A stretch of DNA of 64,000 nucleotides from Gammaproteobacteria bacterium (GCA_965202685.1 OZ241853.1:1176262-1240261), one strand, 5' to 3'; counted from the first letter of the stretch, positions 12,193 to 56,889 are shown. Notes: generated by a model not told the origin, from the letters alone. A program made the numbers and translations.

Positions 12193-14283
12193 TTGTCGCG
12201 CCAGTTGCCTAACGAAAAACTTCCGTCGCTAAAACACACTTGCAGGCTCCATTATTTTGCCTGGCGCATTGACCGCTATAATGATGGCATTATGGCGGCA
12301 ATGAAAAATCGCATTGGAGAACGGATCCGGTTCCATGGCTTAGCGTTGATTGCATGCGCCCTGTTCCTCCTTGCGGGCCTCGCCATCGTCGATGACTACG
12401 GCGTTTCGGCGGACACAGACCCTCAACGGGATATCACCCTCGCTAACCTCAACCACATCCTGCATGACGGCCCAACCCTGTTGCGAAGGGCCGCTGACCA
12501 CCTCTACGGCGTCGCCTTCGAGTTGCCCCTGTTCCTGTTGACGGAACGGATCCTGGGGCTGGAAGACCCGCGTCATGTCCACTTGGCCCGCCATGTCCTG
12601 ACCCATCTGTTTTTTCTAATCGGCGGGTTCTGTTGCTATCTGCTGGCGTTTCGATTGTCCGGCGACCGGCTGGTGGCTCTGTTGGTCATGTTGCTGTTTC
12701 TCTTGTCCCCGCGTCTTTACGCCCATTCCTTTTTCAACAGCAAGGATCCGGTGTTCGCCAGCGCCTTCGTCATGGCCTTGCTCTTTGCGAGCCGCGCCTT
12801 TGACAGGGACTCGGTGGGGGCCTATCGGTGGAGCGGGATGGCAGTGGGGCTTCTCGTCAACCTGCGCATCATGGGCGTGGTTCTGTTTGCCGCCGTGTTG
12901 GTCTTTCGGGCCTGGGCCTGGTTCCGGGCCGAGGGGGGCGCGGCGCGGCGGCGGGTGGTGGCGACCACTGGCGTTTTTGCCCTGTGGGGGGGCCTTGTCT
13001 TGTTCATCAGCCTGCCCTACCTCTGGAGGGACCCCGCAGGGCGGCTGGCGGAAATGGTCGTTGCATCGGCCAATCATCCCACCACCGTTTACATGTTGTT
13101 TGGAGGGAAGGTTTTTCTCAGCGCGGCGTTGCCTTGGGACTATGTGTTGCGCTGGTTCGCCATCAGCCAGCCGCCGGTGACCCTGTTGTTGGGTTTGTTG
13201 GGCCTAGGAGCCTTGGGCCTTGCCGCTGGAAGCGTCGTCAGACGCGGCGCAGACGCCGCGCCGGGGCGCGGCTTGGGAGGGGGCGCCGAGTTGCGCTTCG
13301 GCGTCCTGCTCGCAGCCTGCTTTGCGTTGCCCCTGGTTGCTTTTGTTCTGTTGCGGCCCAATACCTACCATGGCTGGCGGCATTTTTATTTCCTGCACGG
13401 GCCGTTTTGCCTGCTGGCGACCTTCGCCCTGATGGGGATGCGCCAGCTGTCGGCGCGGGGGTTGCAAAGAAGATGGGTCGGCGGCGCGGCTTGCGCACTG
13501 ACGGCGATGGGGCTGGGCGTCGTGGTGGTCCAGATGGCGCAGATCCATCCCCACCAATATCTCTATTTCAACTTTTTTGTGGACCGGAAGACACCGGAGC
13601 GGTTGCGCGCTTGGCACGAGATGGATTACTGGAATATGACGCTACGGCAGGGTTACGAATACATGCTGAGACAGACCCCGGCCGGCGCCATTAACATCAA
13701 AGAAGACTTCGCAACAAGGAAAGAGAAGTTGGATATAGAGATTCTTCCCGCGGCAGACCGGCACCGGTTCGGCCACGACCCGACTCGCGATTTGAACTTC
13801 TATTTGGACAAAAGCCCGGGCCGGTACCTGCCGGTAGAGACTTTCCCCCCCGTTCTTTACCGGCTCAAGGTCTATAACAACACCATTATGACCATTTCCA
13901 CGCCAGATCTGTCCCGGGTTGACCCGAGGGTGGCGGAGGTGTATCGGGTCTTGCATCGAGCGGCGACGGAGGAGGAGGCGGCTCGCGGGGGCGGCTATGA
14001 AGTCCACCGGCACGGCCGGTGGCTGGCGTGGGTGAAAGAGGCTTGCGAGCCTGGGGCACTGAGGCGCGAGTTCTGGCTCAAGCTTTATCCGGCGGACGCG
14101 GGCCGCTTGCCGGCCCATCATCGGAAACGGGGCTACTTTATAATCAGCGTCCGCGGGGTGCGGTTTGACGGCAAGTGCCTGGGGGCGCGACGGCTGCCGG
14201 ACTTCGCCTTGGCCCGCGCGCGCCTGGGGCAGTCTGTTCCTGGAGGGGAGTTGCTATGGGAAACCGAGGTGCCTCTTCTTTAG
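12193..14283 (+). CDS. Array copy 1: GT-C-fold (ArnT/PMT/GtrC-like) polytopic membrane glycosyltransferase-like protein with conserved C-terminal periplasmic domain
   Basis: 696-aa ORF (likely start MAAMKNRIGE near 12292). 11 predicted TMs, DDYG in the first periplasmic loop, and conserved motifs LSPRLYAHSFFNSKDPVFASAFVMALL, WRHFYFLHGPFCLLATFAL, KVYNNT, VRFDGKCLGARRLPDFALAR. C-tail class ...LLWETEVPLL. Confidence 0.85.
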   Translation: MSRQLPNEKLPSLKHTCRLHYFAWRIDRYNDGIMAAMKNRIGERIRFHGLALIACALFLLAGLAIVDDYGVSADTDPQRDITLANLNHILHDGPTLLRRAADHLYGVAFELPLFLLTERILGLEDPRHVHLARHVLTHLFFLIGGFCCYLLAFRLSGDRLVALLVMLLFLLSPRLYAHSFFNSKDPVFASAFVMALLFASRAFDRDSVGAYRWSGMAVGLLVNLRIMGVVLFAAVLVFRAWAWFRAEGGAARRRVVATTGVFALWGGLVLFISLPYLWRDPAGRLAEMVVASANHPTTVYMLFGGKVFLSAALPWDYVLRWFAISQPPVTLLLGLLGLGALGLAAGSVVRRGADAAPGRGLGGGAELRFGVLLAACFALPLVAFVLLRPNTYHGWRHFYFLHGPFCLLATFALMGMRQLSARGLQRRWVGGAACALTAMGLGVVVVQMAQIHPHQYLYFNFFVDRKTPERLRAWHEMDYWNMTLRQGYEYMLRQTPAGAINIKEDFATRKEKLDIEILPAADRHRFGHDPTRDLNFYLDKSPGRYLPVETFPPVLYRLKVYNNTIMTISTPDLSRVDPRVAEVYRVLHRAATEEEAARGGGYEVHRHGRWLAWVKEACEPGALRREFWLKLYPADAGRLPAHHRKRGYFIISVRGVRFDGKCLGARRLPDFALARARLGQSVPGGELLWETEVPLL

Positions 14284-14468
14284 CTTGTTACATCCGCCAT
14301 GCAACTTGACGCATTGACCACATTTTAGCGACGGAAGTTTTTCGTCAGGCAAGCGGCGTGACGAGCGTTTAGCGACGGAAGTTTTTCGTCAGGCAACTGG
14401 CGTGACGAGCGCGGAAACGCCGCGCCACATGGCGGAAAGCTAACAAGCTAAAAGGGTAATATGGCGGT

Positions 14469-16478
14469 ATGGCGGCAATGACAAACCCCATTGGAGAACG
14501 GGCCCGATTTCATAGTCTGGCGTTGATCGTGTGGTCCCTGTTCCTGATAGCGGGCCTCGTCATCGGCGATGACTACGGCGTCCCGCCGTATGCGGGAGGC
14601 CAGCGTTTTGTCGCCATCGACACCCTCAACTATGTCCTGCATGGGGACCAAACCCTGTTGCAAATAGCCGCTGACCGCTTCTACGGCGTCGCCTTCGAGT
14701 TGCCCCTGTTCCTGTTGGAACGGGTCGTGGGTCTGGAAGACCCGCACTATGTTTATTTAGCCCGCCATGTTCTGACCCATCTGTTTTTTCTAATCGGCGG
14801 GTTCTGTTGCTATCTGCTGGCGCGGCGCTTGGCCGGCGACCGGCTGATCGCGCTGTTGGTCATGTTGCTGTTCCTGCTGTCCCCACGCCTTTACGCCCAT
14901 TCCTTCTTCAACAGCAAGGATGCGGTGTTCGCCAGCGCCTTCGTCATGGCATTGCTCTTTGCGAGCCGCGCCTTTGACAGGGACTCGGTGGGGGCCTATC
15001 GGTGGTGCGGGGCGGCGGCGGGGCTTCTCATCCACCTGCGCGTCATGGGCGTGGTTCTGTTTGCCGTCGTGTTGGTCTTTCGGGCCTGGGCCTGGTTCCG
15101 GGCCGGGCGCGGCGCGGGGCGGCGGCGGGTTGTAGTGACCACTGGGGTCTTTGCCCTGTGGGGGGGCCTTGTCTTGTTCATCAGCCTGCCCTATCTCTGG
15201 GGCGACCCCATAGGGCGTCTTTCAGAATATTGGACAGTGTTGGCCGACCATCCTGTCGTTTTTTATGAATTGTTCCGGGGTCAGGTGTTTTTCAGCGCGG
15301 CGTTGCCTTGGGATTATGTGTTGCGCTGGTTCGCCATCAGCCAGCCGCCGGTGACCTTGTTGTTGGGCCTGTTGGGCATGGGGGTCTTGGGCCTTGCCGT
15401 TAGGGGCGCCGTCAGACGCGGCGCGGGCGCCAGGCCGGGGCGCGGTTTGGGCGCCGCCGAGTTGCGCTTCGGCGTCTTGCTCGCAACCTGCTTTGCGTTG
15501 CCCCTGGTTGCCTTTGCCCTGTTGCGGCCCAACACCCTCCAGGGTTGGCGGCATTTTTATTTCCTGCACGGGCCGTTTTGCCTGCTGGCGACCTTCGCCC
15601 TGGCGTGGTTGCGCCAGCTGTCGGTTCGAGGGTTGCAAAGAAGATGGGTCGGCGGCGTTGCCTGCGCGCTGACAGCGGCGGGGCTAGGCGCGGCAGCGTT
15701 GGAGATGGCGCAGATCCATCCCCATCAATATCTCTATTTCAACTTTTTTGTGGACCGGAAGACCCCGGAACGGCTAAGCGAGCGCTACGAGACGGATTAC
15801 TGGAACATGATGTTGCGGCAAGGGTATGAACACATTCTGCGGCAAACGCCTGCTTCCACCATTAACATGAGGCCGCGGGTAGTTGGGACGGCGATGGTGG
15901 GGGTAGTTGGGACGGCGACGGTGGCGGACATCAACCGCAATGTGCAGATCCTTCCGGAGGCGGCCCGGAGCCGGTTCATCTTCGACCCCGCTCGGGACCC
16001 GGATTTCTACTTGGGCGGAAATGCGGAGAAAAGCTTCCTGCCTAAAGATCCTTTCTCTCCCGTTCTCCATCGGATCAAGGTCTATAACAACACCATTATG
16101 ACCATATCCACACCGGATTTGTCCCGGGTTGACCCAGCGGTGGCGAATGCGTATCGGGCTTTGCAGCGGGCGGCGATGGCGGGGGCGCCGGCGGCGCGGG
16201 CGGGGGGCTTTGATGTGCACCTGCATGGCCAGCGGCTGGCGTGGGTGAAGGAGGCTTGCGAGCCTGGGGAATTGATGTCGCCGTTCCGGCTCAGGTTTTA
16301 TCCGGCGGACGCGGGCCGGTTGCCGAACCATCTCCGGAAACATGGCTACTTTGCAACCAGCGTCCGCGGGGTGCGGTTTGACGGCAAGTGCCTGGGGGCG
16401 CGACGACTGCCGGATTTCGCCTTGGCCCGGGTGCGCTTGGGGCAACCAGGGAAGTGGGAAGTCGACATCCCCTTTTAG
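14469..16478 (+). CDS. Array copy 2: GT-C-like membrane glycosyltransferase paralog
   Basis: 669 aa with the same conserved TM core and C-terminal domain. Linker contains a 24-bp x2 in-frame tandem repeat (15879-15926, VVGTAMVG/VVGTATVA). C-tail class GKWEVDIPF. Confidence 0.85.
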   Translation: MAAMTNPIGERARFHSLALIVWSLFLIAGLVIGDDYGVPPYAGGQRFVAIDTLNYVLHGDQTLLQIAADRFYGVAFELPLFLLERVVGLEDPHYVYLARHVLTHLFFLIGGFCCYLLARRLAGDRLIALLVMLLFLLSPRLYAHSFFNSKDAVFASAFVMALLFASRAFDRDSVGAYRWCGAAAGLLIHLRVMGVVLFAVVLVFRAWAWFRAGRGAGRRRVVVTTGVFALWGGLVLFISLPYLWGDPIGRLSEYWTVLADHPVVFYELFRGQVFFSAALPWDYVLRWFAISQPPVTLLLGLLGMGVLGLAVRGAVRRGAGARPGRGLGAAELRFGVLLATCFALPLVAFALLRPNTLQGWRHFYFLHGPFCLLATFALAWLRQLSVRGLQRRWVGGVACALTAAGLGAAALEMAQIHPHQYLYFNFFVDRKTPERLSERYETDYWNMMLRQGYEHILRQTPASTINMRPRVVGTAMVGVVGTATVADINRNVQILPEAARSRFIFDPARDPDFYLGGNAEKSFLPKDPFSPVLHRIKVYNNTIMTISTPDLSRVDPAVANAYRALQRAAMAGAPAARAGGFDVHLHGQRLAWVKEACEPGELMSPFRLRFYPADAGRLPNHLRKHGYFATSVRGVRFDGKCLGARRLPDFALARVRLGQPGKWEVDIPF

Positions 16479-16653: not shown

Positions 16654-18639
16654 ATGGCGGCTATGACCAATCGCATTCGAGAAGGGGGCCGATTTCATAG
16701 TCTGGCGTTGAGCGTGTGGGCCTTGTTTTTGATTACGGGCCTCGCCATCGTCGATGACTACGGCGTCTCGCCGGACACGGTGGAGCAACGTCGTGTCACC
16801 CTCAACACCCTCAACTATGTCCTGCATGACGACCAAACTCTGTTGCACATGGATGCTGACCGCTTCTACGGCGTCGCCTTCGAGGCGCCCCTGTTCCTGT
16901 TGGAACGGGTCCTGGGGCTAGAAGATCTGCGCCATATCTATTTGACCCGCCATGTCCTGACGCACCTGTTGTTTCTAATCGGCGGGTTCTGTTGCTATCT
17001 GCTGGCGTTTCGATTGTCCGGCGACCGGCTGGCGGCGCTGTTGGCCATGGCGCTGTTTCTCCTGTCCCCGCGCCTCTACGCCCATTCCTTCTTCAACAGC
17101 AAGGATCCAGTGTTCGCCAGCGCCTTCGTCATGGCCTTGCTCGTTGTGAGCTGCGCCTTTGACAGGGACTCGGTGGGGGCCTATCGGTGGGGCGGGGCGG
17201 CAGTGGGGCTTCTCGTCAACCTGCGCGTCATGGGCGTGGTTCTGTTTGCCATCGTGTTGCTTTTTCGGGCCTGGGCCTGGTTCCGGGCCGAGGGGGACGC
17301 GGCGCGGCGGCGGGTTGTAGTGACCACTGGGGCTTTCGCCCTGTGGGGGGGCGTTATTTTGTTCATTAGCCTGCCCTATCTCTGGGAGGACCCCGTAGGG
17401 CGTCTGGTGGAAATGCCAGCGGTACTGAGTGATCATCCTATCGTTCTTTATGAATTGTTCCGGGGGCAGGTGCTTTCCAGCGCGGCGTTGCCTTGGGACT
17501 ATGTGTTGCATTGGTTCGTCATCAGCCAGCCGCCGGTGACCTTGTTGTTGGGTCTGTTGGGCATGGGGGCCCTAGGTCTTGCCGTTTGGGGCGTCGTCAG
17601 GCGCGGCGCGGGCGCCGGGCCGGGGCGCAGCTTAGGGGGAGACGCCGAGTTGCGCTTCGGCGTCTTGCTCGCAATCTGCTTTGCGTTGCCCCTGGTTGCC
17701 TTTGCGCTGTTGCGACCCACCACCATCAATGGCTGGCGGCATTTTTATTTCCTGCACGGGCCTTTTTGTCTGCTGGCGACCTTCGCCCTGATGGGGTTGC
17801 GCCAGCTGTCGGCGCGGGGGTTGCCCAAAGAATGGCTCGGCGGCGCGGCGTGCGCGCTGACAGCGGCAGGGTTGTGCGTCGTGGTTGTCCAGATGGCGCA
17901 GATCCATCCTAACCAGCAACTTTATTTCAACTTCTTTGCGGACCGGAAGACCCCGGAACGGCTACACGCCTGGTACGAAATGGATTACTACGCCATAGCG
18001 GAGCGGCAAAGTTATGAACACATCCTGCGACAAGCATCTGCTTCCATCATTAACCTGAAGCCACGGCAGGCGGTATCGCCGCGGCGGGACAACCGCAATG
18101 TGCATATTCTTCCCTCGGCGGCCCGCAACCGGTTCACCAACGATCCGAAACGCGACCCGGATTTCTACTTGGGAACCACCGCCGTAAATTCGCTACCGGA
18201 GGTGCCTAGGGTGTTTTTCCCCCCCGTTCTCCACCGGATTAAGGTCTATAACAACACCATGATGACCGTATCCACGCCAGATCTGTCCCGGGTTGACCCA
18301 GTGGTGACGAATGCGTATCGGGATTTGCGCCGGGCAGTGATGACGGGGGAACCAGTGGCCCGGGCGGGAGGCTTTGATGTGTATCTGCATGGCAAGCGGC
18401 TGGCGTGGGCGAAGGAGGCTTGCGAGCCCGGGGCGCTGAGGCGCGAGTTCCGGTTCAAGCTTTATCCGGTGGACGCAGGCCGTTTGCTGGCCCATCACCA
18501 GAAACAGGGCTACTTCGAACTCAGCGTCCGCGGGGTGCGGTTTGATGGCAAGTGCCTGGGGGCGGCGCGGTTGCCGGATTTCGCCTTGGCCCGGATTCTC
18601 CTGAAGCAACCAGGGAAGTGGGTTGAGGTGCCTCTTTAA
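16654..18639 (+). CDS. Array copy 3: GT-C-like membrane glycosyltransferase paralog
   Basis: 661 aa with the conserved family motifs and a distinct linker (…INLKPRQAVSPRRDNRNVHILPSAARNRF…). Confidence 0.85.
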   Translation: MAAMTNRIREGGRFHSLALSVWALFLITGLAIVDDYGVSPDTVEQRRVTLNTLNYVLHDDQTLLHMDADRFYGVAFEAPLFLLERVLGLEDLRHIYLTRHVLTHLLFLIGGFCCYLLAFRLSGDRLAALLAMALFLLSPRLYAHSFFNSKDPVFASAFVMALLVVSCAFDRDSVGAYRWGGAAVGLLVNLRVMGVVLFAIVLLFRAWAWFRAEGDAARRRVVVTTGAFALWGGVILFISLPYLWEDPVGRLVEMPAVLSDHPIVLYELFRGQVLSSAALPWDYVLHWFVISQPPVTLLLGLLGMGALGLAVWGVVRRGAGAGPGRSLGGDAELRFGVLLAICFALPLVAFALLRPTTINGWRHFYFLHGPFCLLATFALMGLRQLSARGLPKEWLGGAACALTAAGLCVVVVQMAQIHPNQQLYFNFFADRKTPERLHAWYEMDYYAIAERQSYEHILRQASASIINLKPRQAVSPRRDNRNVHILPSAARNRFTNDPKRDPDFYLGTTAVNSLPEVPRVFFPPVLHRIKVYNNTMMTVSTPDLSRVDPVVTNAYRDLRRAVMTGEPVARAGGFDVYLHGKRLAWAKEACEPGALRREFRFKLYPVDAGRLLAHHQKQGYFELSVRGVRFDGKCLGAARLPDFALARILLKQPGKWVEVPL

Positions 18640-18790
18640 CTTTTAGCTTGTCAGTTTTCCGTTTTAGCTTGTTAGTTTTCCGCCATGCATCGCGGCATCT
18701 CTTCGCTCGGTCAGTCATGTATTTGATATACACTCCTTCCCGCGCTCATCACGCCGCTTGCCTGACGAAAAATTTCCGTCGCTAAAAGGG
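18640..18790. repeat. Exemplar of the ~125-bp MITE-like intergenic repeat (modules A+B, forward orientation). The family fills every spacer between 7446 and 57100 in both orientations.
   Basis: ttttagcttgttagttttccgccatgcatcgcggcatctcttcgctcggtcagtcatgtatttgatatacactccttcccgcgctcatcacgccgcttgcctgacgaaaaatttccgtcgctaaaa. Its reverse complement occurs e.g. at 29893-30033. The termini ttttagc…gctaaaa form a short inverted repeat. Confidence 0.8.
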
Positions 18791-18837
18791 TTGCGGGATA
18801 ACGGAAAACTAACAGGCTAAAAGGGTAATATGGCGGC

Positions 18838-20817
18838 ATGTCTGCAATAACCAGCCGTATTGGAGAACGGATCCGGTTCCATCGTTTAGCGTTGATTGCA
18901 TGCGCCCTGTTCCTGATTACGGGCCTCGCCATCGTCGATGACTACGGCGTCTCGTGGGATACGGGGATGCAGCGTCTTGTCGCCATCAACACTGTCAACT
19001 ATATCCTGCATGGCGACCAAACCATGTTGAAAATAGAGGCTGACCGTTTCTACGGCGCCGCCTTCGAGGCGCCCCTGCTTCTGTTGACGGAACGGGGCCT
19101 GGGCCTGGAAGACCCGCGCCACGTCTATTTGGCCCGCCATGTCCTCACGCACTTGTTTTTTCTGCTTGGCGGATTCTGTTGCTATCTGTTGGCGTTTCGC
19201 TTGTCCGGCGACCGGCTGGCGGCGCTGTTGGTCATGGCGCTGTTCCTGCTGTCCCCGCGTCTCTACGCCCATTCCTTCTTCAACAGCAAGGATCCAATGT
19301 TCGCCAGCGCCTTCGTCATGGCCTTGCTCGTTGTGTGTCGCACCTTTGACAAAGACTCGGTGGGGGCCTATCGGTGGGGCGGGATGGCGATGGGACTTCT
19401 CGTCCACCTGCGCATCATGGGCGTGGTTCTGTTTGCTCTCGTGTTGGTTTTTCGGACCTGGGCCTGGTTCCGGGCCGGGGGGCGGGCGGCGCGGCGGCGG
19501 GTGGCGGCGACCACTGGGGCTTTTGCCCTGTGGGGGGGCCTTGTCTTGTTCATCAGCCTGCCCTACCTCTGGAGGGACCCCGTAGGGCGGCTTTCAGAAT
19601 ATTGGATGGCGTTGGCCGATCATCCTGCCATCCACTCTCGCGAATTGCTCCGGGGTCAGGTGTTTCCTAACACGGCGTTGCCTTGGGACTATGTGTTGCA
19701 CTGGTTCGCCATCAGCCAGCCGCCGGTGACCTTGTTATTGGGGCTGTTGGGCCTAGTGGCCTTGGGCCTTGCCGCTGGGGGCGTCGTCAGACGCAACGCG
19801 GGCGCTGGGCCGGGCGCGGCATGGGGGGGTGCCGAGTTGCGCTTTGGCGTCCTGCTCGCAACCTGCTTTGCGTTGCCGCTGGTCGCCTTTGCGCTGTTGC
19901 GGCCCACCACTCTCGATAGCTGGCGGCATTTTTATTTCCTGCACGGGCCTTTTTGTCTGCTGGCGACCTTCGCCCTGATGGGGTTGCGCCAGTTGCCGGC
20001 GCGGGGGGCGCGAAAAGGATGGGTCGGCGGCGTTGCCTGCGGGCTGACAGCGGCGGGGCTGTGCGTCGCGGCGTTGGAGATGGCGCAGATCCATCCCCAC
20101 CAATATCTCTATTTCAACTTTTTTGTGGACCGCAAAACTCCGGAACGGCTACGGACCCGCTACACCATGGATCACTGGGACATGGCGATGCGGCAGAGTT
20201 ACGAACACCTACTAAGGCAAACTCCGACCGCCGCCATTAACCTGGAAAAGCAATACCTCATCTCGAGACTCAATTTGAGTAAAATGATTCTTCCCGCGGC
20301 AGACCGGCACCGGTTCACCCACGACCCCAGTCGCGACGCGGATTTCTATTTAAACGGAAGCACAAGGCAAAGCTTCCTGCTCAAAGATCCTTTTCCTCCC
20401 GTTCTCCACCGGTTCAAGGTCTATAACAACACGATGTTGATCTTATCCACGCCGGATTTGTCCCGGGTTGACCCGGCGTTGGCGGAGGCGTATCGGGATT
20501 TGCATCGGGCGGCGACAGCAGGGGAACCGGTGGCGCGGGCGGGCGGCTTCGATGCGCACCTGCATGGCAACCGGCTGGCGTGGGTGAAGGAGGATTGCGA
20601 GCCTGGGGCGCTGAGGCGCGAGTTCTTGCTCAAGCTTTATCCGGCGGACCCGGGCCGTTTGCCGGAATCTCGCCGGCGATGGGGCTACTTCGAATTCTAC
20701 GCCCGCGGAGTGCGGTTTGACGGCAAATGCCTGGGGGCGCGACAGTTGCCGGATTTCGCCCTAACCCGGATTCGCCTGGGACAACCAGGGAAGTGGGAAG
20801 TCGACATCCCCTTTTAG
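18838..20817 (+). CDS. Array copy 4: GT-C-like membrane glycosyltransferase paralog
   Basis: 659 aa with linker class …ILPAADRHRFTHDPSRD…. Only 55 bp separate it from copy 5. Confidence 0.85.
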   Translation: MSAITSRIGERIRFHRLALIACALFLITGLAIVDDYGVSWDTGMQRLVAINTVNYILHGDQTMLKIEADRFYGAAFEAPLLLLTERGLGLEDPRHVYLARHVLTHLFFLLGGFCCYLLAFRLSGDRLAALLVMALFLLSPRLYAHSFFNSKDPMFASAFVMALLVVCRTFDKDSVGAYRWGGMAMGLLVHLRIMGVVLFALVLVFRTWAWFRAGGRAARRRVAATTGAFALWGGLVLFISLPYLWRDPVGRLSEYWMALADHPAIHSRELLRGQVFPNTALPWDYVLHWFAISQPPVTLLLGLLGLVALGLAAGGVVRRNAGAGPGAAWGGAELRFGVLLATCFALPLVAFALLRPTTLDSWRHFYFLHGPFCLLATFALMGLRQLPARGARKGWVGGVACGLTAAGLCVAALEMAQIHPHQYLYFNFFVDRKTPERLRTRYTMDHWDMAMRQSYEHLLRQTPTAAINLEKQYLISRLNLSKMILPAADRHRFTHDPSRDADFYLNGSTRQSFLLKDPFPPVLHRFKVYNNTMLILSTPDLSRVDPALAEAYRDLHRAATAGEPVARAGGFDAHLHGNRLAWVKEDCEPGALRREFLLKLYPADPGRLPESRRRWGYFEFYARGVRFDGKCLGARQLPDFALTRIRLGQPGKWEVDIPF

Positions 20818-22854: not shown

Positions 22855-23105
22855 CTTTTAGCTTGTTAGTTTTCCGTTTTAGCTTGTTAGTTTTCCGCCA
22901 TGTGGCGCGGCGTTTCCTCGCTCGGCCAGTTTTAGCTTGTTAGTTTTCCGTTATCCTGCCTGGCGCTTCCGCGTTCGGCCAGTCATGTATTTGACATACA
23001 CTCCCGTCCTCGCTCATCACGCCGCTTGCCTGACGAAAAACTTCCGTCGCTAAAAGGGTTGCGGGATGGCGGAAAGCTAACAAGCTAAAAGGGTAATATG
23101 GCGGC

Positions 23106-25212: not shown

Positions 25213-25348
25213 CTGCGCGACCCCCGAGGGCATAGCTTGGGGTCGGGCTTTTTACGACACGCTGTAAATCCATCCGCGAGACGCTCTCGGCGCGGCCATC
25301 CAAGCCGCACAGGGTCTTAAAAGCCCGACCCCAAGCTGCGCCCCTTTT
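25213..25348. repeat. Module C hairpin element, copy 2
   Basis: agcttggggtcgggcttttt…aaaagcccgaccccaagct: a perfect 17-bp outer stem, with the stem sequence co-varying relative to the other copies. Confidence 0.6.
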
Positions 25349-44022: not shown

Positions 44023-44117
44023 CCACCCTTTTAGCTTGTCAGTTTTCCGCCATCTCGCAATACTTTTAGCGACGGAAGTTTTTCGTCAGGCAAGCGGCAT
44101 GATAAGCGCGGGAGGGA

Positions 44118-46118: not shown

Positions 46119-46348
46119 TTTTTAGCTTGTTAGTTTTCCGCCATGTGGCGCGGCGTTCCCTCGCTCGGTCAGTTTTAGCTTGTTAGTTTTCCGTTATCCT
46201 GCCTGGCGCTTCCGCGTTCAGTCAGTCATGTATTTGATATACACTCCTTTCCGCGCTCATCACGTCGCTTGCCTGACGAAAAATTTCCGTCGCTAAAATG
46301 GTTGCGGGATAACGGAAAGCTAACAGGCTAAAAGGGTAATATGGCGGC

Positions 46349-48328: not shown

Positions 48329-48742
48329 CTTGTTAGTTTTCCACCATGCGTCCTGGCGTTTCCTCGCTCGGCCAGTCATGTATTTGACATACACTCCTGC
48401 CCTCGCTCCTCACGCCAGTTGCCTGACGAAAAACTTCCGTCGCTAAAATAGTTGCAGTTTTCCGTTATTTTGCCCGGTGCTTCCGCGTTCAGTCAGTTTA
48501 GCTTGTTAGTTTTCCGCCATGCATCGCGGCGTTTCCTCACGCGGTCAGTCATGTATTTAATATACACTCCATCCCGTGCTCGTCACGCCGCTTGCCTGAC
48601 GAAAAACTTCCGTCGCTAAAAGTGTTGCAGGCTCCGTTATCCTGCCTGGCGCTTCCGCGTTCAGTCAGTCATGTATTTGATATACACTCCCTCCCTCACT
48701 TGTCGCGCCAGTTGTCTAACGAAAAACTTCCGTCGCTAAAAA

Positions 48743-50729
48743 ATGGTCAATTCACCGCTTGCATGGCGGAAAACTAACAAGCTAAAACGGGCCCGATTTC
48801 ATAGTCTGGCGCTGGTCGTGTGCGCCCTGTTTTTGATAGCGGGCCTCGTCATCGTCGATGACTACGGCGTCTCGTTAGATGCGGATGGACAACGCCGTGT
48901 CGCCATCAACACCCTCAACTATGTCCTGCATGAAGTCCAAACCCTGTTGCGAACCCATGACCGCTTCTACGGCGCCGCCTTCGAGGCGCCCCTGTTCCTC
49001 TTGACGGAACGGGTCCTGGGCCTGGAAGACCCGCGCCATGTCTATTTGGCCCGCCATGTCTTGACGCACTTGTTTTTTCTAATCGGCGGGTTCTGTTGCT
49101 ATCTGCTGGCGCGGCGCTTGGCCGGCGATCGTCTGATCGCGCTGTTGGTCATGTTGCTGTTCCTGCTGTCCCCGCGTCTTTACGCCCATTCCTTCTTCAA
49201 CAGCAAGGATCCAGTGTTCGCCAGCGCCTTCGTCATGGCCTTGCTCGTCGTGAGCCGCGCCTTTGACAGGGACTCGGTGGGGGCCTATCGGGGGTGCGGG
49301 GCAATGGCAGGATTTCTCATCAACCTGCGCATCATGGGCGTGGTTCTGTTTGCCGTCGTGTTGCTCTTTCGGGCCTGGGCCTGGTTTCGGGCCGAGGGCG
49401 CGGCGCGGCGGCGGGTTGTGGCGACCGCTGGCGCTTTCGCATTGTGGGGGGGTCTTGTCTTGTTCATCAGCCTGCCTTACCTCTGGAGGGACCCCGCAGG
49501 GCGGCTGGCGGAAATGGTCGCGCTGTTGTCCCACCATCCTAACATTGTCTTCGAACTGTTCCGGGGTCAGGTGTTTTCCAGCGCGGCGTTGCCTTGGGAC
49601 TATGTGTTGCGCTGGTTCGCCATCAGCCAGCCGCCGGTGACCTTGTTGTTGGGGCTGTTGGGCCTGGGGGCCTTGGGTCTTGCCGCTGGGAGCGTCGTCA
49701 GACGCGGCGCGGGCGCCGGGCCGGGCGCGGCATGGGGGGGGGGGGGGGGGGGAGTTGCGCTTCGGCATTCTGCTGGCAACCTGTTTTGCGTTGCCCCTGG
49801 TCGCCTTTGTCCTGTTGCGGCCCACGCTTTTCGATGGCTGGCGGCATTTTTATTTCCTGCACGGGCCTTTTTGCCTGCTGGCGACCTTCGCCCTGATGGG
49901 GTTGCGCCAACTATCGGTTCGAGGGTTGCAAAGAAAATGGCACGGCGGCGTTGCCTGCGCGCTGACGGCAACGGGTCTGGGCACGGCGGCGTTGGAGATG
50001 GCGCAGATCCATCCCCACCAATATCTCTATTTCAACTTTTTTGTGGACCGGAAGACCCCGGAACGGCTAAGCGAGCGCTACGAGACGGATTACTGGAACA
50101 TGATGTTGCGGCAAGGGTATGAACACATCCTGCGGCAAGCGCCCGCTTCCACCATTAACATGAGGCCGCGATTCAACCGCAGTGTGCAGATTCTCCCGGC
50201 GGCGGCCCGGAGCCGGTTCACCTACGACCCCGAGCGGGATCCGGATTTCTACTTGGTAAGCAACACCATAAATTCGCCGTCAAGCATGCTTAAGGACTCT
50301 TTTCCTCCCGTTCTTCATCGGCTCAAGGTCTATAACAACACCATGTTGATCGTATCCACGCCGGATCTGTCCCGGGTTGACCCGGCGGTGGCGGAGGCGT
50401 ATCGGGCTCTGCATCGGGCGGCGACAGCGGAGGCGCCGGCGGCCCGGGCGGGGGGCTTCGATGCGCGCCTGCATGGCGAGCGGCTGGCGTGGGTGAAGGA
50501 GGCTTGCGAGCCCGGGGAATTGATGGCGCCGTTCCGGCTCAGGCTTTATCCGGCGGACGCGGGCCGTTTGCCTAGTGGAAGCTACTTCGAACTCGGCATC
50601 CGCGGGGTGCGGTTTGATGGCAAGTGCCTGGGGGCGGCGCGACTGCCGGATTTCGCCCTGGCCCGGATTCGCCTGTGGCAGTTCGTTCTTGGCGGAGGTT
50701 TGCTGTGGGAAACTGATATCCACTTCTAA
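48743..50729 (+). pseudogene. Array copy 17: GT-C-like paralog split by a frameshift at a G19 homopolymer (ORFs 48743-50122 and 49680-50729). Either a pseudogene or a phase-variable gene. 5' end is also the replaced type (junction 48787/48788).
   Basis: Other copies read ...ggcgcggcatgggggggtgccgagttgcgc... (GAWGGAELRFG). Here the sequence is catg + 19 G + agttgcgc, and the frame switches at the tract. The downstream ORF resumes the conserved ELRFGILLATCF... sequence. Confidence 0.7.
49734..49752 (+). repeat. Homopolymeric G19 tract inside array copy 17 (candidate slipped-strand phase-variation site, or a sequencing error)
   Basis: Counted directly: G run from 49734 to 49752. Paralogous positions in other copies carry G7-TGCCG. 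Confidence 0.8.
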
Positions 50730-50844
50730 TTTTAGCTTGTTAGTTGCCTGGCGCTTCCGCGTTCAGTCAGTCATGTATTTGATATACACTCCTTCCTTCA
50801 CTTGGCGCGCCAGTTGCCTAACGAAAAACTTCCGTCGCTAAAAA

Positions 50845-52851
50845 ATGGTCAATTCACCGCTTGCATGGCGGAAAACTAACAAGCTAAAACGGGCCCGATT
50901 TCATAGTTTGGCGCTGGTCGTGTGGTCCCTGTTTTTGATCGCGGGCCTCGCCATTGTCGATGACTACGGCGTCTCGTGGGATGCGGGAGCCCAGCGTCTT
51001 ATCGCCATCAACACCGTCGACTATGTCCTGCATGATGACCCAGGCCGGTTACGATGGGTCGCTGACCGCTTCTACGGCGTCGCCTTCGAGTTGACCCTGT
51101 CCCTGTTGACGGAACGGGTCCTGGGGCTGGAAGACCCGCGCCATGTCTATTTGGCCCGCCATATCCTGACGCACTTGTTTTTTCTATTCGGCGGGTTCTG
51201 TTGCTATCTGCTGGCGTGGCGTCTGTCCGGCGACCGGCTGGTCGCGCTGTTGGTCATGTTGCTGTTCCTGCTGTCTCCGCGCCTGTACGCCCATTCCTTC
51301 TTCAACAGCAAGGATGCGGTGTTCGCCAGCGCCTTCGTGATGGCCTTGCTCTTTGTGTGTCGCGCCTTTGACAGGGACTCGGTGGGGGCCTATCGGTGGG
51401 GCGGGATGGCAGTGGGACTTCTCGTCCACCTGCGCATCATGGGCGTGGTTCTGTTTGCTCTCGTGTTGGTCTTTCGAGCCTGGGCCTGGTTTCGGGCCGA
51501 GGGGTGCGCGGCGCAACGACGGATTGTGGCGACCACTAGCGTCTTCGCCCTGTGGGGGGGCGTTGTCTTGTTCATCAGCCTGCCCTATCTCTGGGGCGAC
51601 CCCATAGAGCGGCTGGCGGAAATGGCCGTGGTGTCAGCTGATCATCCCATTCATCTTACCTCTTATGAGTTGTTCAGGGGGCAAGTGTTTCCTAGCGCGG
51701 CGTTGCCTTGGGACTATGTGTTGCGCTGGTTCGCCATCAGTCAGCCGCCTGTGGCCTTGTTGTTGGGGCTGTTGGGCCTGGGGGCCTTGGGTCTTGCCGT
51801 TTGGGGCGTCGTCAGGCGCGGCGCGGGTGCCGGGCCGGGCGCGGCATGGGGGGGCGCCGAGTTGCGCTTCGGCGTCCTGCTGGCAACCTGCTTCGTGTTG
51901 CCCATGGTTGCCTTTATTCTGTTGCGACCCACCACCATCGATGGCTGGCGGCATTTTTATTTCCTGCACGGGCCTTTTTGCCTGCTGGCGACCTTCGCCC
52001 TGATGAGAATGCGTCAGCTGTCAGTGCGAGGGTTGCGAAAAAGATGGGTTGGCGGCGCGGTCTGCGCACTGATGGCGGCGGGGGTGTGCGTCGTGGCCCT
52101 TGAGATGGCGCAGATCCATCCTAACCAGCATCTCTATTTCAATTTTTTTGTGGACCGGAAAACCCCGGAACGGCTAAACGAACGCTACGAGATGGATTAC
52201 TGGGACATGATGTTGCGGCAAGGATATGAACATATCCTGCGGCAAGCGCCCGCTTCCACCATTAACATGAGGCCGCGAGCGTCAGCGAACAACCGCCATG
52301 TGCAGATCCTGCCGGCGGCAGCCCGGAGCCAGTTCACCCACGACCCCGATCGGGACCCGGATTTCTACTTGGCAAGAAACGCCGGAATTCCGCCGCCAAG
52401 CTTGCTCAAGGGCTCTTTTCTCCCCGTTCTCCACCGGTTCAAGGTCTATAACAACACCATGATGACCGTTTCCACGCCGGATTTATCACGGATTGCTCCG
52501 ACGGCGGCGGATGCGTATCGGGCGTTGCATCAGGCGGCGACAGCAGGGGAACCAGCGGCCTGGGCGGGGGGGGTTGATGTGTATCTGCTTGGCGACCGGC
52601 TGGCGTGGGTGAAGGAGGCTTGCGAGCCTGGGGAATTGATGTCGCCGTTCCAGATCAGACTTTATCCGGCGGACGCGGGCCGTTTGCCTAGCGGTCTGCG
52701 GGAACGGGGTTACTTCGGACTCAGTGCCAGCGGGGTGCGGGTTGACGGCAATTGCCTATGGGGAACGCGACTGCCGGACTTCGCCCTAACCCGGATTCGC
52801 CTAAGGCAACCAGGGAAGTGGGAAGTTGAGGTAGTGGTAGAATTTGACTGA
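50845..52851 (+). CDS. Array copy 18: GT-C-like paralog. 5' end replaced (junction 50889/50890). 3' end lacks the family stop and intergenic spacer, and abuts the start of gene 52851.
   Basis: Family C-terminus ...GKWEVEV then continues VVEFD*. The stop TGA overlaps the ATG of the next gene (ttgacTGATGcc). The motif ggtagaatt at the junction matches the upstream region of paralog A (7596-7606). Confidence 0.75.
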   Translation: MVNSPLAWRKTNKLKRARFHSLALVVWSLFLIAGLAIVDDYGVSWDAGAQRLIAINTVDYVLHDDPGRLRWVADRFYGVAFELTLSLLTERVLGLEDPRHVYLARHILTHLFFLFGGFCCYLLAWRLSGDRLVALLVMLLFLLSPRLYAHSFFNSKDAVFASAFVMALLFVCRAFDRDSVGAYRWGGMAVGLLVHLRIMGVVLFALVLVFRAWAWFRAEGCAAQRRIVATTSVFALWGGVVLFISLPYLWGDPIERLAEMAVVSADHPIHLTSYELFRGQVFPSAALPWDYVLRWFAISQPPVALLLGLLGLGALGLAVWGVVRRGAGAGPGAAWGGAELRFGVLLATCFVLPMVAFILLRPTTIDGWRHFYFLHGPFCLLATFALMRMRQLSVRGLRKRWVGGAVCALMAAGVCVVALEMAQIHPNQHLYFNFFVDRKTPERLNERYEMDYWDMMLRQGYEHILRQAPASTINMRPRASANNRHVQILPAAARSQFTHDPDRDPDFYLARNAGIPPPSLLKGSFLPVLHRFKVYNNTMMTVSTPDLSRIAPTAADAYRALHQAATAGEPAAWAGGVDVYLLGDRLAWVKEACEPGELMSPFQIRLYPADAGRLPSGLRERGYFGLSASGVRVDGNCLWGTRLPDFALTRIRLRQPGKWEVEVVVEFD

Positions 52852-54581
52852 TGCCCAAACAACCCCCTTTTATCCTGTTGATCGCGGCCCTGGCTCTGGG
52901 CGCTTTCTTTGTGGCCATGTGGATCTGGCAACCCCGCATGTCCCTCCACCACTTGGCGCACTCTGCCCACAAGGCCCTGAGCGGAGCCTTGGAAATGCGC
53001 GGCCTCAGTGCGCCTGAAGACGATGACGAGTCAGTCGAATCCCTTGACGGAAGCAACGAGAAAAACACGGTGGGCCTGCTTGAGTGCGATAGGGATGAGG
53101 CGACAGAGAAAACGACGACAGAGAAAACGAGGATAAAACTTCGGGCGAAAAAATTCAGTCAACTGAGATGTCTGACAGCGCGCGTTGCCAGCCGTGAGGC
53201 GAGCGCAAAGCGCATCGAGTTCATCGCCGCCGAGAGATTCGATGACCCGGTGCTGGTAGGGGGAGGGATCGGCATGTTTCTTGAGCATTGTCCGCCCTCT
53301 CCACCGGGGCTGTCTGGGGGTTGCCTGGCGGTGGAATACTCGCGCAATGGCGAAGTGAGCCGCGCCGTGCCACTCCGGCTCCAAGCCATCAAAGAGGCCA
53401 ACATCGTTTCTGCATACAACTGGAAGGGTGAAGATCACCTCCACCGACAAGTTGATTGGCCAGAGCTGATAGTGCGCTCAGTCTCCCTTTATCCCGGTGG
53501 AGACTTGTTGGTCCATTTTGAAGTGGGTGTTCCTTTTTCCCACGGCGCCGGCGTGGCCCGCGTGGCGCAGGACGGGCGACCGCGCTGGTTTCGCGAGGAC
53601 TACAGCCAACCCTGGCCCCATATTATCGATGACAATCTCGCCTTGGTCCGAAGCAGGCAACCGCAACGACTGAGAACCAAGACTCTTCGAGTGAACCATA
53701 AGGAAAAAGTCGTGGCGTGTTATGAGAACTGGAAATGGCATGACACCGTCAACCTGATAGATGGCAGGGGACGTCTGTTGGATGAAATTGACCTCCTGGA
53801 GGCGTTGCTTGAATCCCCCTACAGCATCCTCTTTGAACGCAACTTTAACGGGCGCGACAACCCCGCTTTTACCAACTCCATACACCGCGGCGGATCTGGA
53901 TTCCCTCAGGGAGGCGGGTGCAACAATCCCGCTCTTACTAACTCCATACACCATTGCCGCCTGGCGGCCGGCACTTTGGCGGGATGCAACAACCCCGCTT
54001 TTGCTAACTCCATACACCAGCTGGGCGCCGACGCGGGCGGCGCGAACAACATCGCCCCGGGCGACATCGTGGCATCGTTGCCATTCCTCAACGCCTTCGG
54101 CATCATAGATCAGAACAACCGGCGGTTTAAGGAGCTGGTCCGGGGCAGTTTCATTCAGCAACACGCCGTTCGCCATCTTGAGAAGGCGCGGTTCCTCATG
54201 TTCGACTCGGGCAGCTTCCCGACCCGCTTGTTGATGTTTGACTTGGCCACCGGCAAGGAAACCACCCTGTTCCCCCGGGACCACACTCCGCCCCATCTGC
54301 GCCAGATTGCGCCCCTTAACTTTCCCCCCAACACCGGCTACGCTAAGAACTCCGAGTTCAAGATAGGGATACATATAGCGGTGGCGCCGGACCGACAGCG
54401 CATTCTCTTCGGCAAACCAAGGTCCGGCCTAGCTTTTGAGTTGCGCCTTTCCGACGGCCGGGTTTTGAACATTTTTCGCCAGTTGCATGATCTGTCGAGT
54501 GTCGTTAACATTCCTGACTTATTTCGGCAACGAGCGGGGGTTTTTCAGGCAACGGCTTATGACTATGCTAACCGGTTTTAG
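52851..54581 (+). CDS. Membrane-anchored periplasmic protein of unknown function (paralog B of 7611-9278), with an internal 63-bp x ~2.5 tandem repeat
   Basis: 576 aa. Same N-terminal anchor (PFILLIAALALGAFFVAMWIW) and shared blocks (CLTARVA(R/S)REASAKRIEFI, RWFR(K/E)DYS, LMxDLATGKETTLFPRDHTP, LRLSDGRVLNIFRQLHDLSSV). Repeat CNNPA(F/L)TNSIH occurs 3 times at 53862-54040. Confidence 0.8.
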   Translation: MPKQPPFILLIAALALGAFFVAMWIWQPRMSLHHLAHSAHKALSGALEMRGLSAPEDDDESVESLDGSNEKNTVGLLECDRDEATEKTTTEKTRIKLRAKKFSQLRCLTARVASREASAKRIEFIAAERFDDPVLVGGGIGMFLEHCPPSPPGLSGGCLAVEYSRNGEVSRAVPLRLQAIKEANIVSAYNWKGEDHLHRQVDWPELIVRSVSLYPGGDLLVHFEVGVPFSHGAGVARVAQDGRPRWFREDYSQPWPHIIDDNLALVRSRQPQRLRTKTLRVNHKEKVVACYENWKWHDTVNLIDGRGRLLDEIDLLEALLESPYSILFERNFNGRDNPAFTNSIHRGGSGFPQGGGCNNPALTNSIHHCRLAAGTLAGCNNPAFANSIHQLGADAGGANNIAPGDIVASLPFLNAFGIIDQNNRRFKELVRGSFIQQHAVRHLEKARFLMFDSGSFPTRLLMFDLATGKETTLFPRDHTPPHLRQIAPLNFPPNTGYAKNSEFKIGIHIAVAPDRQRILFGKPRSGLAFELRLSDGRVLNIFRQLHDLSSVVNIPDLFRQRAGVFQATAYDYANRF

Positions 54582-54906: not shown

Positions 54907-56889
54907 GTGTGGTTTTCCGCCATGACAGCAATAACAAATCGCATTGGAGAACGGATCCGGTTCCATCGCTTAGCCTTGATTACCTGCGCCCTGTTCCTCC
55001 TCGCGGGCCTCGCCCTCGTCGATGACTACGGCGTCTCGTGGGATACGAAAGCCCAGCGTCTTGTCGCCATCAACACCTTCAACTATGTCCTGCATGGGGA
55101 TCCAGCCCTGTTGCGAACCCATGACCGCTTCTACGGCGCCGCTTTCGAGGCGCCCCTGTTGCTGTTGACGGAACGAATCCTGGGGCTGGAAGACCCGCGC
55201 CATGTCCACTTGGCCCGCCATGTCTTGACCCACCTGTTTTTTCTAATCGGCGGGTTCTGTTGCTATCTGTTGGCGCGGCGCCTGTCCGGCGACCGGCTGA
55301 CCGCGCTGTTGGTCATGGCGCTGTTCCTGCTGTCTCCGCGCCTGTACGCCCATTCCTTCTTCAACAACAAGGATCTAGTGTTCGCCAGCGCCTTCGTGAT
55401 GGCCTTGCTCGTTGTGAGCCGCGCCTTTGACAAGGATTCGGTGGGGGCCTATCGATGGTGCGGAGCGGCGGCGGGGCTTCTCGTCAACCTGCGCATCATG
55501 GGCATGGTTCTGTTCGCCGTCGTGTTGCTCTTTCGGGCCTGGGCCTGGTTCCGGGCCGGGGATGGCGTAGCGCGGCGGCGAGTTGTGGCAACCACTGGGG
55601 CTTTTGCCCTGTGGGGGGTCATTGTCTTGTACATCAGCCTGCCCTATCTATGGGAAGACCCCGTAGGGCGGTTTTCAGAATATTGGACAGTGTTGTCCGA
55701 CCCTCCTTTCAACAGGCACCGCATATTGTTCCAGGGTCAGGCATTTTGGGCGTTTTCCGGCGCGGCGTTGCCTTGGGATTATATGTTGCACTGGTTCGCC
55801 ATCAGCCAGCCGCCGGTGACCTTGTTGTTGGGTCTGTTGGGCCTAGTGGCCCTGGGCTTTGCCGCTGGGGGCGTCGTCAGACGCGGCGCAGGCGCCGGGC
55901 CGGGACGCGGTTTGGGCGCCGCCGAGTTGCGCTTTGGCATCCTGCTCGCAACCTGCTTCGTGTTGCCCCTGCTCGCCTTTGCGCTGTTGCGGCATAACAC
56001 CATCAATGGCTGGCGGCAATTTTATTTCCTGCACGGGCCGTTTTGCCTGCTGGCGACCTTCGCCCTGGCGTGGTTGCGCGGGTTGTCTGTCCGGGGGTTG
56101 CGAAAAGAATGGGTGGGCGGCGCGGCGTGCGCGCTGACGGCGGCGGGACTGGGCGCGGCGGCGTTGGAGATGGCGCAGATCCATCCTAACCAGCACCTTT
56201 ATTTCAACTTTTTAGCGGACCGGAAAACCCCGGAACGACTGCGCGAGCGCTATCGGATGGATTACTGGGACCTGATGTTTCGGCAAGGATATGAACACAT
56301 CATGCAACGAGAGCCTGCTTCCATCATTAACATGAGAGGGCACCGGAATATGCAGATCCTCCCGGCGGCGGTCCGGAGCCGGTTCACCTTCGACCCCGCT
56401 CAGGATCCGGATTTCTATTTAAGCGGAAGCGGAGAGCCCAGCTTCCTACTCAAAGATCCTTTCCCTCCCATTCTCCATCGGATCAAGCTCTATAACAACA
56501 CGATGTTGACCGTGTCCACACCGGATCTGTCTCGGGTTGACCCGGCGGTGGCGAATGAGTATCGGGCTTTGCATCGGGCGGCGACGGCGGGGGAACCGGC
56601 GGTCCGGGCGGGGGGCTTCGATGTGCACCTGCATGGCGACCGGCTGGCGTGGGTGAAGGAGGCTTGCGAGCCTGGGGAATTGTGGTTTCCGTTCCGGCTC
56701 AGACTTTATCCGGCGAACGCGGACCTTTTGCCGGACCCTCTCCTCCGGAAACAGGGCGGCTTTGCAATCAGCGCCTTTGGGGTGCGGTTTGACGGCAAGT
56801 GCCTGGGGGCGGCGCGGTTGCCGGACTTCGCCCTAACCCGGATTCGCCTAGGGCAACGGGGGATGTGGGAAACCGAAGTGCCCCTTTAG
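54907..56889 (+). CDS. Array copy 19: GT-C-like membrane glycosyltransferase paralog
   Basis: 660-aa ORF (probable start MTAITNRIGE at ~54922) with the conserved family core. Last copy before rsmA. Confidence 0.85.
   Translation: MWFSAMTAITNRIGERIRFHRLALITCALFLLAGLALVDDYGVSWDTKAQRLVAINTFNYVLHGDPALLRTHDRFYGAAFEAPLLLLTERILGLEDPRHVHLARHVLTHLFFLIGGFCCYLLARRLSGDRLTALLVMALFLLSPRLYAHSFFNNKDLVFASAFVMALLVVSRAFDKDSVGAYRWCGAAAGLLVNLRIMGMVLFAVVLLFRAWAWFRAGDGVARRRVVATTGAFALWGVIVLYISLPYLWEDPVGRFSEYWTVLSDPPFNRHRILFQGQAFWAFSGAALPWDYMLHWFAISQPPVTLLLGLLGLVALGFAAGGVVRRGAGAGPGRGLGAAELRFGILLATCFVLPLLAFALLRHNTINGWRQFYFLHGPFCLLATFALAWLRGLSVRGLRKEWVGGAACALTAAGLGAAALEMAQIHPNQHLYFNFLADRKTPERLRERYRMDYWDLMFRQGYEHIMQREPASIINMRGHRNMQILPAAVRSRFTFDPAQDPDFYLSGSGEPSFLLKDPFPPILHRIKLYNNTMLTVSTPDLSRVDPAVANEYRALHRAATAGEPAVRAGGFDVHLHGDRLAWVKEACEPGELWFPFRLRLYPANADLLPDPLLRKQGGFAISAFGVRFDGKCLGAARLPDFALTRIRLGQRGMWETEVPL

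Follow-up and report, generated by a model that had tools for sequence, protein, structure and literature searches.

Most known cases of phase-variable surface glycosylation come from pathogens and gut Bacteroides, with whole operons usually switched. In the GtrABC systems for O-antigen glucosylation in Shigella and Salmonella, which are phase-variable in Salmonella, GtrC is a serotype-specific GT-C transferase. The locus described here lies in a 64,000-nucleotide (nt) stretch of DNA from a Gammaproteobacteria bacterium (GCA_965202685.1 OZ241853.1:1176262-1240261), called the window below, and consists of 19 paralogous genes for GT-C glycosyltransferases that run in tandem from 12193 to 56889, with short cassettes at their 5' ends that occur in opposite orientations in related strains. 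The reading that we favor, with a probability of roughly 0.55, is that inversion of these cassettes makes surface glycosylation phase-variable gene by gene.

Like GtrABC, the locus combines a polytopic GT-C-type transferase that has a periplasmic domain with several paralogous specificity genes per genome and with ON/OFF switching (proposed here) that gives surface-glycan heterogeneity. Unlike in GtrABC, no gtrA or gtrB is adjacent, the neighbors being a GT4 enzyme, a Wzx-like protein and a two-domain GT2 enzyme; there are 19 tandem copies rather than one per module; an NCBIfam scan of the GT-C proteins gave no match, and hence none to ArnT models; and the proposed switch is inversion of cassette DNA rather than Dam/OxyR epigenetic control. 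The proteins differ from Pmt1, Pmt2 and Pmt4 (GT39), with which they share 9-10% sequence identity, in having a ~230-amino-acid (aa) β-rich C-terminal periplasmic domain without structural match and in lacking a MIR domain in the large lumenal loop (none was detected in Pfam scans of window copies and diverse family members). They differ also from ArnT (GT83), the transferase of 4-amino-4-deoxy-L-arabinose (L-Ara4N) to lipid A, which has a different C-terminal domain and is single-copy in a donor-supplying arn operon; the window holds no arn genes. In chemistry, ArnT and the Gtr modules are the nearest analogues by function.

The nearest known counterparts of the proposed switch are the capsular polysaccharide invertons of Bacteroides and gene-altering programmed inversions (Milman et al. 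2023, PMC9881135). As in those systems, short inverted repeats enclose a segment that precedes surface-structure genes or overlaps their 5' end, and many independently switching loci would give combinatorial phenotypes. Unlike in those systems, there is one switch per single gene of a tandem paralog array and not per operon; the cassette, which includes a Shine-Dalgarno (SD)-like motif and a start codon, also occurs in tandem copies; and the host is an uncultured gammaproteobacterium-like lineage, with no invertase found in the window. What sets the system apart is the proposed switch per gene in a 19-gene array, the cassette-borne translation signals, and the new periplasmic domain. A limited search of the searchable literature found no description of the family or of comparable arrays.

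Tandem GT-C glycosyltransferase genes

Open reading frame (ORF) listing and all-versus-all BLASTP resolved the array into 19 paralogous units on the + strand, 18 of them intact and encoding 651-696 aa each, much as a first-pass annotation, made by a model from the DNA alone, had described it (19 same-strand genes of about 2 kb, 650-700 aa). Overlooked there was a single non-family ORF of 576 aa between units 18 and 19 (52851-54581), which encodes a protein resembling arylsulfotransferases (ASST-like, see below). Pairwise aa identity among the paralogs is 57-88%, with paralog 11 (34530-36575) as the outlier at ~60%. The median nt identity is 82% over the whole gene and 87% (83-91%) over the transmembrane (TM) core, somewhat below the 85-95% that the annotation had given for the core. 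The flanking genes are those it had named, encoding ClpA/ClpS upstream and RsmA, PdxA, SurA and LptD downstream; also in agreement with it, no transposase or recombinase was found among the ORFs of the 64-kb window, and an Rfam scan of the window gave no match. The units are listed below by coordinates and strand; class I and class II denote two kinds of 5' end, defined in the next section.

12193..14283, +, paralog 1: class I 5' end; likely start 12295, MAAMKNRIGERIRFH
14469..16478, +, paralog 2: class I
16654..18639, +, paralog 3: class I
18838..20817, +, paralog 4: class I in the window, class II 5' end in two orthologs
20872..22854, +, paralog 5: upstream spacer of 54 bp only
23106..25172, +, paralog 6: class I
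25618..27579, +, paralog 7: class I; copy used for the AlphaFold model
27708..29717, +, paralog 8: class II; right-hand repeat inside the ORF, encoding WRKTNKLK
29962..31974, +, paralog 9: class II; start codon from a + cassette (MTDQARKRRDAWRKTDKLK)
32244..34199, +, paralog 10: class I
34530..36575, +, paralog 11: class II; most divergent; Pfam PMT 29.5 bits, above gathering cutoff
37026..39008, +, paralog 12: class I
39400..41385, +, paralog 13: class I
41860..43863, +, paralog 14: class I; three tandem + cassettes upstream
44118..46118, +, paralog 15: class II; start codon within a + cassette
46349..48328, +, paralog 16: class I
48743..50729, +, paralog 17: class II; frame broken at G19 (49734-49752)
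50845..52851, +, paralog 18: class II; stop overlaps the ATG of the next ORF (TGATG)
54907..56889, +, paralog 19: class I; Pfam PMT_2 31.3 bits, above gathering cutoff

The proteins are established as members of the GT-C superfamily by their predicted fold and the conserved catalytic-site residues. All five window copies tested match Pfam PMT (PF02366, gathering cutoff 22.7) or PMT_2 (PF13231, gathering cutoff 26.1), two of them above and three just below the cutoff. Among 35 diverse family members, 28 match PMT_2 at E<=0.01 and 13 match PMT, and PF13231 appears in the precomputed protein-database annotation of many homologs. The best PDB sequence for the family profile, and the sole relevant match in PDB profile searches, is yeast Pmt2 (E 0.04).

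An alignment of the 18 paralogs alone gave an AlphaFold model with a predicted local distance difference test score (pLDDT) of 38; with 86 diverse homologs instead, the model of paralog 7 had a pLDDT of 90.7 and a predicted template modeling score (pTM) of 0.91. This second model comprises 11 TM helices, a first periplasmic loop that is long and carries short helices, a second periplasmic insertion at ~241-294 and a β-rich C-terminal domain at ~420-653, for which no structural match was found; its nearest structural neighbors are Pmt4 and Pmt2. It shows the features by which a GT-C enzyme is recognized, namely a polytopic fold with an N-terminal TM module, a long first extracytoplasmic loop, and acidic residues at the start of that loop. 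The GT-C architecture put forward in the first-pass annotation, with its 11-TM core, DD motif and conserved C-terminal periplasmic domain (there given as ~250 aa), is therefore borne out.

The DD motif (IVDDYGVS) begins the first periplasmic loop, and its D34, D35, Y36 and G37 are invariant across the 18 intact paralogs; R141, H145, N149, K151, D152 and R192 are invariant or nearly so. In the 86-homolog alignment G37, D41, P140, N149, K151 and R192 are invariant, R141, H145 and D152 nearly so, and D35 is conserved in at least 90% of the homologs. Such conservation is consistent with an active GT-C catalytic site, in which K151, R141 and R192 could bind phosphate. Membership of the ArnT, GtrC or eukaryote-type PMT groups is not established, and the family represents a GT-C clade not characterised before, whose periplasmic domain is new.

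Differences between paralogs are greatest in periplasmic segments, so acceptor or linkage specificity probably differs between them too. The ratio of nonsynonymous to synonymous divergence (dN/dS) over all paralog pairs is 0.46 overall and 0.15-0.4 in most TM segments, and rises to ~0.7-1.1 at residues 43-81 of loop 1 and at residues 456-486 and 603-621 of the C-terminal domain, a pattern that suggests diversified acceptor-facing surfaces on a conserved catalytic core. Residues 162-201 also have a dN/dS of 0.7-1.05, but their dS is very low (0.09-0.15, with the minimum of 0.09 around residues 162-181), which indicates homogenisation and not diversification. Identical runs of up to 138 nt occur between paralogs that are otherwise ~82% identical; together with the very low local dS, they point to patchy gene conversion within the array. 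Examples are runs of 138 nt between the genes at 18838 and 46349 and of 111 nt between those at 29962 and 46349.

The frameshift in paralog 17 leaves ORFs of 459 and 349 aa. Its G19 tract lies in a region coding for a cytoplasmic loop and could mean that the gene is switched by strand slippage or is a pseudogene, unless it is a sequencing error in a homopolymer. Elsewhere in the gene, other GT-C copies have G7-G8 tracts (e.g., at ALWGG codons).

Invertible cassettes between the genes

The spacers are built from a ~120-bp (base-pair) cassette with modules A (TTTTAGCGACGGAAGTTTTTCGTCAGGCAAC), B (GGAAGGAGTGT, which is SD-like and is followed by a small hairpin and an ATG), C1 (ACTGACCGAGCGAGGAAACGCC) and C2 (GGCGGAAAACTAACAAGCTAAAA), the last being the 23-bp inverted-repeat motif that bounds the cassette. 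At <=3 mismatches, the window contains 45 copies of C2, where chance would give 0. Between the repeats lie ~115-130 bp with the A box, an SD-like GGAGG, the hairpin and the ATG; the A box, SD-like motif and ATG are at least 95% conserved over 45 cassette copies. The left repeat (IRL) is a reverse C2 that in most genes adjoins the stop codon or overlaps it, and the right repeat (IRR), a forward C2, lies 15 nt upstream of the ATG or within the 5' coding region. As in invertons, a segment bounded by inverted repeats accordingly occupies a fixed position relative to the gene.

The position of the right repeat defines the two classes of 5' end. In the 13 class I genes it is 15 nt upstream of the ATG, and the protein begins M[SA]A[MI]TNRIGERARFH. 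In the six class II genes (8, 9, 11, 15, 17 and 18) it lies within the coding region and encodes WRKT[ND]KLK; a + cassette there supplies the in-frame start MTDQARKRRDAWRKTDKLK, and a - cassette leaves a different in-frame ATG (MVNSPLAWRK) without an SD. Modules A, B and C1 are + oriented upstream of genes 7, 9 and 11-15 and - oriented upstream of genes 3, 4, 6, 8, 10, 16-18 and paralog 19. Both repeats are detectable in 11 of the 19 spacers in the module map, and the cassettes located with their repeats are as follows.

7463..7587, + orientation, cassette before the ASST-like gene at 7611: IRL 7463-7485, IRR 7565-7587
18641..18822, - orientation, cassette before paralog 4: IRL 18641-18684, IRR 18800-18822
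22856..23090, - orientation, cassette before paralog 6: IRL 22930-22952, IRR 23068-23090
25345..25602, + orientation, cassette before paralog 7: IRL 25345-25367, IRR 25527-25549 and 25580-25602
27581..27752, - orientation, cassette before paralog 8: IRL 27581-27603, IRR 27730-27752
29720..30033, + orientation, cassettes before paralog 9: IRL 29720-29742, IRR 30011-30033
36570..37010, + orientation, cassette before paralog 12: IRL 36570-36592, IRR 36935-36957 and 36988-37010
39003..39384, + orientation, cassettes before paralog 13: IRL 39003-39025, IRR 39362-39384
44029..44189, + orientation, cassette before and inside paralog 15: IRL 44029-44051, IRR 44167-44189
46120..46333, - orientation, cassette before paralog 16: IRL 46120-46142 and 46173-46195, IRR 46311-46333
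48323..48787, - orientation, cassettes before paralog 17: IRL 48323-48345 and 48496-48518, IRR 48765-48787
50730..50889, - orientation, cassette before paralog 18: IRL 50730-50752, IRR 50867-50889
56884..57008, - orientation, terminal cassette past paralog 19: no right-hand repeat

Orthologous spacers in other assemblies were mapped with the same modules and BLAST. The loci compared were L073 (ERZ25068319 contig_1, a 2.97-Mb single contig), L074 (ERZ25070167), L075 (ERZ23495584) and L072 (a JGI contig), with these cassette orientations:

Spacer upstream of gene 3: window -, L073 -, L074 -
Spacer upstream of gene 4: window -, L073 +, L074 -, L075 +
Spacer upstream of gene 6: window -, L073 +, L074 -, L075 -
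Spacer upstream of gene 7: window +, L073 -, L074 -, L075 +
Spacer upstream of gene 8: window -, L074 -, L075 -
Spacer upstream of gene 9: window +, L074 +
Spacer upstream of paralog 19: window -, L072 -

The genes that flank spacers of opposite orientation are 92-96% identical in nt between assemblies. At the level of single bases, the window segment from 25345-25367 to 25527-25549 is the reverse complement of L074 from 8654-8676 to 8792-8814, and the flanks are collinear. The spacers of genes 4 and 7 show all four combinations of orientation across the four assemblies, which argues for recurrent independent flips and not a single ancestral event. In control arrays from Gammaproteobacteria (OZ251487), Dehalococcoidia and Binatia, spacer similarity was in the forward direction only, with no inverted matches. 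We conclude with high confidence that the spacer cassettes are invertible elements, and the opposite orientations in related strains lend support to the earlier suggestion of a switchable surface-glycan system. The 5' ends appear to be exchanged between genes or strains as well as inverted, given that paralog 4 is class I in the window (18838-20817) and its orthologs in L073 (2981-4987) and L075 (180-2189) are class II.

The hairpin of module B, between the SD-like GGAGG and the cassette ATG (examples are at 44112-44140 and 25468-25500), takes the form GTGTAT-N5-ATACAT in 27 copies and GTGTGC-N5-GCACAT in 18, with no mixed forms; this compensatory change of two base pairs hints at a structural role in RNA or DNA. 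A leaderless-mRNA promoter, with TATATT 6 nt before the cassette ATG, was also considered for this position and was dropped, since 18 of the 45 cassettes have GC pairs there, with which the hairpin alone is retained. To the left of the cassette, five spacers contain a GC-rich palindromic element of ~150-180 bp with terminator-like hairpins (GACCCC...GGGGTCGGGCTTTTT and its mirror image), at 25195-25344, ~11865-12044, 36584-36728, 39009-39097 and 43868-44050.

Proposed phase variation and alternative readings

In the reading that we favor, the array encodes 19 inner-membrane GT-C glycosyltransferases of a PMT_2/GT39-like subfamily, each of which, by analogy with characterised GT-C enzymes, would move a sugar from a polyprenyl-phosphate-linked donor to a periplasmic-side acceptor destined for the cell surface. 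Each gene would be an independent unit bounded by the 23-bp inverted repeats. Cassette inversion exchanges the start codon and the N-terminal tail of the six class II genes; in the remaining genes, any signals for transcription or translation within the cassette would be turned around. Such orientation-dependent expression would produce a clonal population displaying many combinations of surface-glycan decorations. The surroundings speak for this reading too, with genes for a GT4 enzyme, a Wzx-like flippase, a GT2 enzyme and a methyltransferase upstream and for LptD and SurA downstream. If it is correct, an uncultured bacterium with a genome of ~3 Mb has in this one locus a combinatorial set of periplasmic sugar transferases, each gene of which is switched separately by DNA inversion. 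The possible selective gains from glycan diversity include evasion of phages or of host phagocytes, and the cassette provides a concrete, testable switch sequence.

Several findings weigh against this proposal. Inverted C2 repeats flank the 2-kb gene bodies as well, yet no assembly shows these bodies inverted, and both orientations at one locus were seen between strains, not within one population. The recombinase that the proposal calls for is not among the ORFs of the 64-kb window, and no GtrA/GtrB-type or ArnC-type donor synthase was identified among the window genes. No convincing promoter was found in the cassettes, the -10-like TATATT being missing from 18 of 45, and a scan of sigma-70 and terminator patterns performed no better than on shuffled sequence. 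Each of the 13 class I genes comes with an SD and an ATG of its own, located downstream of the right repeat. Lastly, the cassettes are tandemly duplicated with variable copy number, which suggests that the spacers are generally recombinogenic and not only invertible.

Some of these findings would equally suit cassettes that are selfish or structural repeats, similar to repetitive extragenic palindromic (REP) sequences or miniature inverted-repeat transposable elements (MITEs), that flip and duplicate by homologous recombination with no regulatory effect; the genes would then be expressed together, and their expansion would serve a broad substrate range or dosage, not switching. Tandem multimers of variable number, the lack of a recombinase in the window and of a robust promoter, and the cassette-independent SD and ATG of class I genes all fit that account, as do the long identical runs between paralogs if these mark ongoing homologous exchange. 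We nevertheless judge it unlikely, because the repeats are fixed in position between genes, one at the preceding stop codon and one at the following 5' end; only the inner segment is found flipped, never the equally flanked gene bodies; six genes take an in-frame start codon from the cassette; the same cassette precedes an unrelated ASST-like gene; and the A box, SD-like motif and ATG are conserved over so many copies. Another account concerns the acceptor and not the switch: the enzymes might be protein O-glycosyltransferases that modify secreted or periplasmic proteins, not lipopolysaccharide (LPS) or exopolysaccharide (EPS), with different paralogs recognising different targets. The nearest structural and sequence neighbors, Pmt4 and Pmt2, and the Pfam matches to PMT and PMT_2 point that way, and the large variable periplasmic domain could bind protein acceptors; we consider this account, too, rather improbable.

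An assembly artefact, in which one or two genes were expanded or mis-joined, is scarcely credible. Repetitive loci do mis-assemble easily, and one copy is frameshifted at a long homopolymer; against this, the copies differ by 13-22% in nt, and gene order is shared with three independent assemblies at 87-96% identity, which together exclude an artefact and answer the concern over a collapsed or expanded array that the first-pass annotation had raised. Genes 3-7 are in the same order in L073 (the 2.97-Mb single contig), genes 3, 4 and 6-10 in L074, and genes 4 and 6-8 in L075. In a fourth assembly, L072, the match covers the downstream end of the array, with part of a gene-18-like copy, the ASST-like ORF and paralog 19, and continues into the rsmA-pdxA-surA-lptD flank, at 92-97% identity. 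Gene content varies among these assemblies: neither L074 nor L075 has a gene 5 ortholog of >=89% nt identity, an additional split gene separates genes 9 and 10 in L074, and in L075 a gene-13-like copy comes after gene 8. At least one further array lies elsewhere in a related genome (L071).

Neighboring genes and wider distribution

The ORF embedded in the array has a paralog outside it, and a glycan-biosynthesis cluster lies upstream of both:

52851..54581, +, ASST-like protein in the array: 576 aa, N-terminal membrane anchor; ATG overlaps the stop of paralog 18
7611..9278, +, second ASST-like paralog, outside the array: 55% identity to 52851-54581
503..7457, glycan-biosynthesis cluster: unknown ORF, GT4, Wzx-like flippase and two-domain GT2 on the - strand; methyltransferase on the + strand

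The two ASST-like copies of the window gave no match to Pfam. An exhaustive search (264 representatives) returned ten distant relatives, eight of which match PF14269 (Arylsulfotran_2), seven of them above the gathering cutoff, which identifies the embedded protein as an arylsulfotransferase-like β-propeller. It has an ortholog in L072 (2058-3788), and a homolog of 36% identity lies beside a gene of the GT-C family in a Caldilineaceae metagenome-assembled genome (MAG; L030 14850-16055, - strand). Upstream of the gene at 7611 lies a complete + cassette that has both repeats, and upstream of the embedded copy in L072 there are + cassettes. The two ASST-like genes may be part of the same variable decoration system. 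The 503-7457 cluster, whose flippase is a Wzx-like Polysacc_synt protein and whose protein with two GT2 domains is 745 aa long, could be a source of the acceptor polymer or of lipid-linked donors.

The subfamily extends well beyond this lineage. Gene 7 has at least 1,629 homologs in the protein database, and a Dehalococcoidia relative at least 3,298; the best 120 for gene 7 come from many contigs and are all 73-92% identical to it. Full-length relatives (38-48% identity, C-terminal domain included) form tandem arrays in MAGs of Gammaproteobacteria, Dehalococcoidia, Caldilineaceae and Binatia: the loci fetched contain at least 20 copies in OZ251487 (Gammaproteobacteria, 1.83 Mb), at least 10 in a Caldilineaceae MAG and at least 20 in a Binatia MAG, and arrays are also present in several Dehalococcoidia MAGs. 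In OZ251487, these genes (at least 20 of ~2 kb, or ~40 kb) make up roughly 2% of the genome. So large a share of the genome in unrelated phyla suggests strong recurrent selection for surface-glycan diversity. The nearest relative of nearly every protein is in the same genome, and identity between phyla is uniformly 42-50% whatever the phylogenetic distance, a pattern consistent with genes that spread horizontally and were then independently amplified within each lineage or evolved in concert. More distant relatives (22-32% identity; Polynucleobacter, Bacteroidia, Eisenbacteria and others), some of them named 'glycosyltransferase family 39 protein' by their sources, have only the TM domain in common with the window proteins. 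No relative was found in phage records, and plasmid records gave a single distant match (25% identity). The MAG names and style of accession suggest, without confirming, host-associated marine metagenomes, possibly from sponges.

A broader and decidedly tentative reading is that each GT-C gene and each ASST-like gene is under its own invertible cassette, allowing in principle up to ~2^19 states of surface decoration from one genome, and that the subfamily, whose periplasmic domain is unique to it, is a habitat-specific invention. It would have spread horizontally and reached 20 or more copies independently in five or more lineages from three phyla, which would probably be symbionts of the same type of host. 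If so, the subfamily would be a major factor in interactions with hosts or phages that has so far gone unrecognised.

The arrays of other lineages show some features of their own. In those of Binatia OZ241744 (L013, L017, L021, L022, L024 and L029), the spacers are 87 bp long and all forward, and the region homologous to ~420-650 matches twice per gene, which suggests an internal duplication of the C-terminal domain. Many of the relatives found with the Dehalococcoidia query (P0133-P0250) are 880-1190 aa long, with a long extra region beyond the ~650-aa core.

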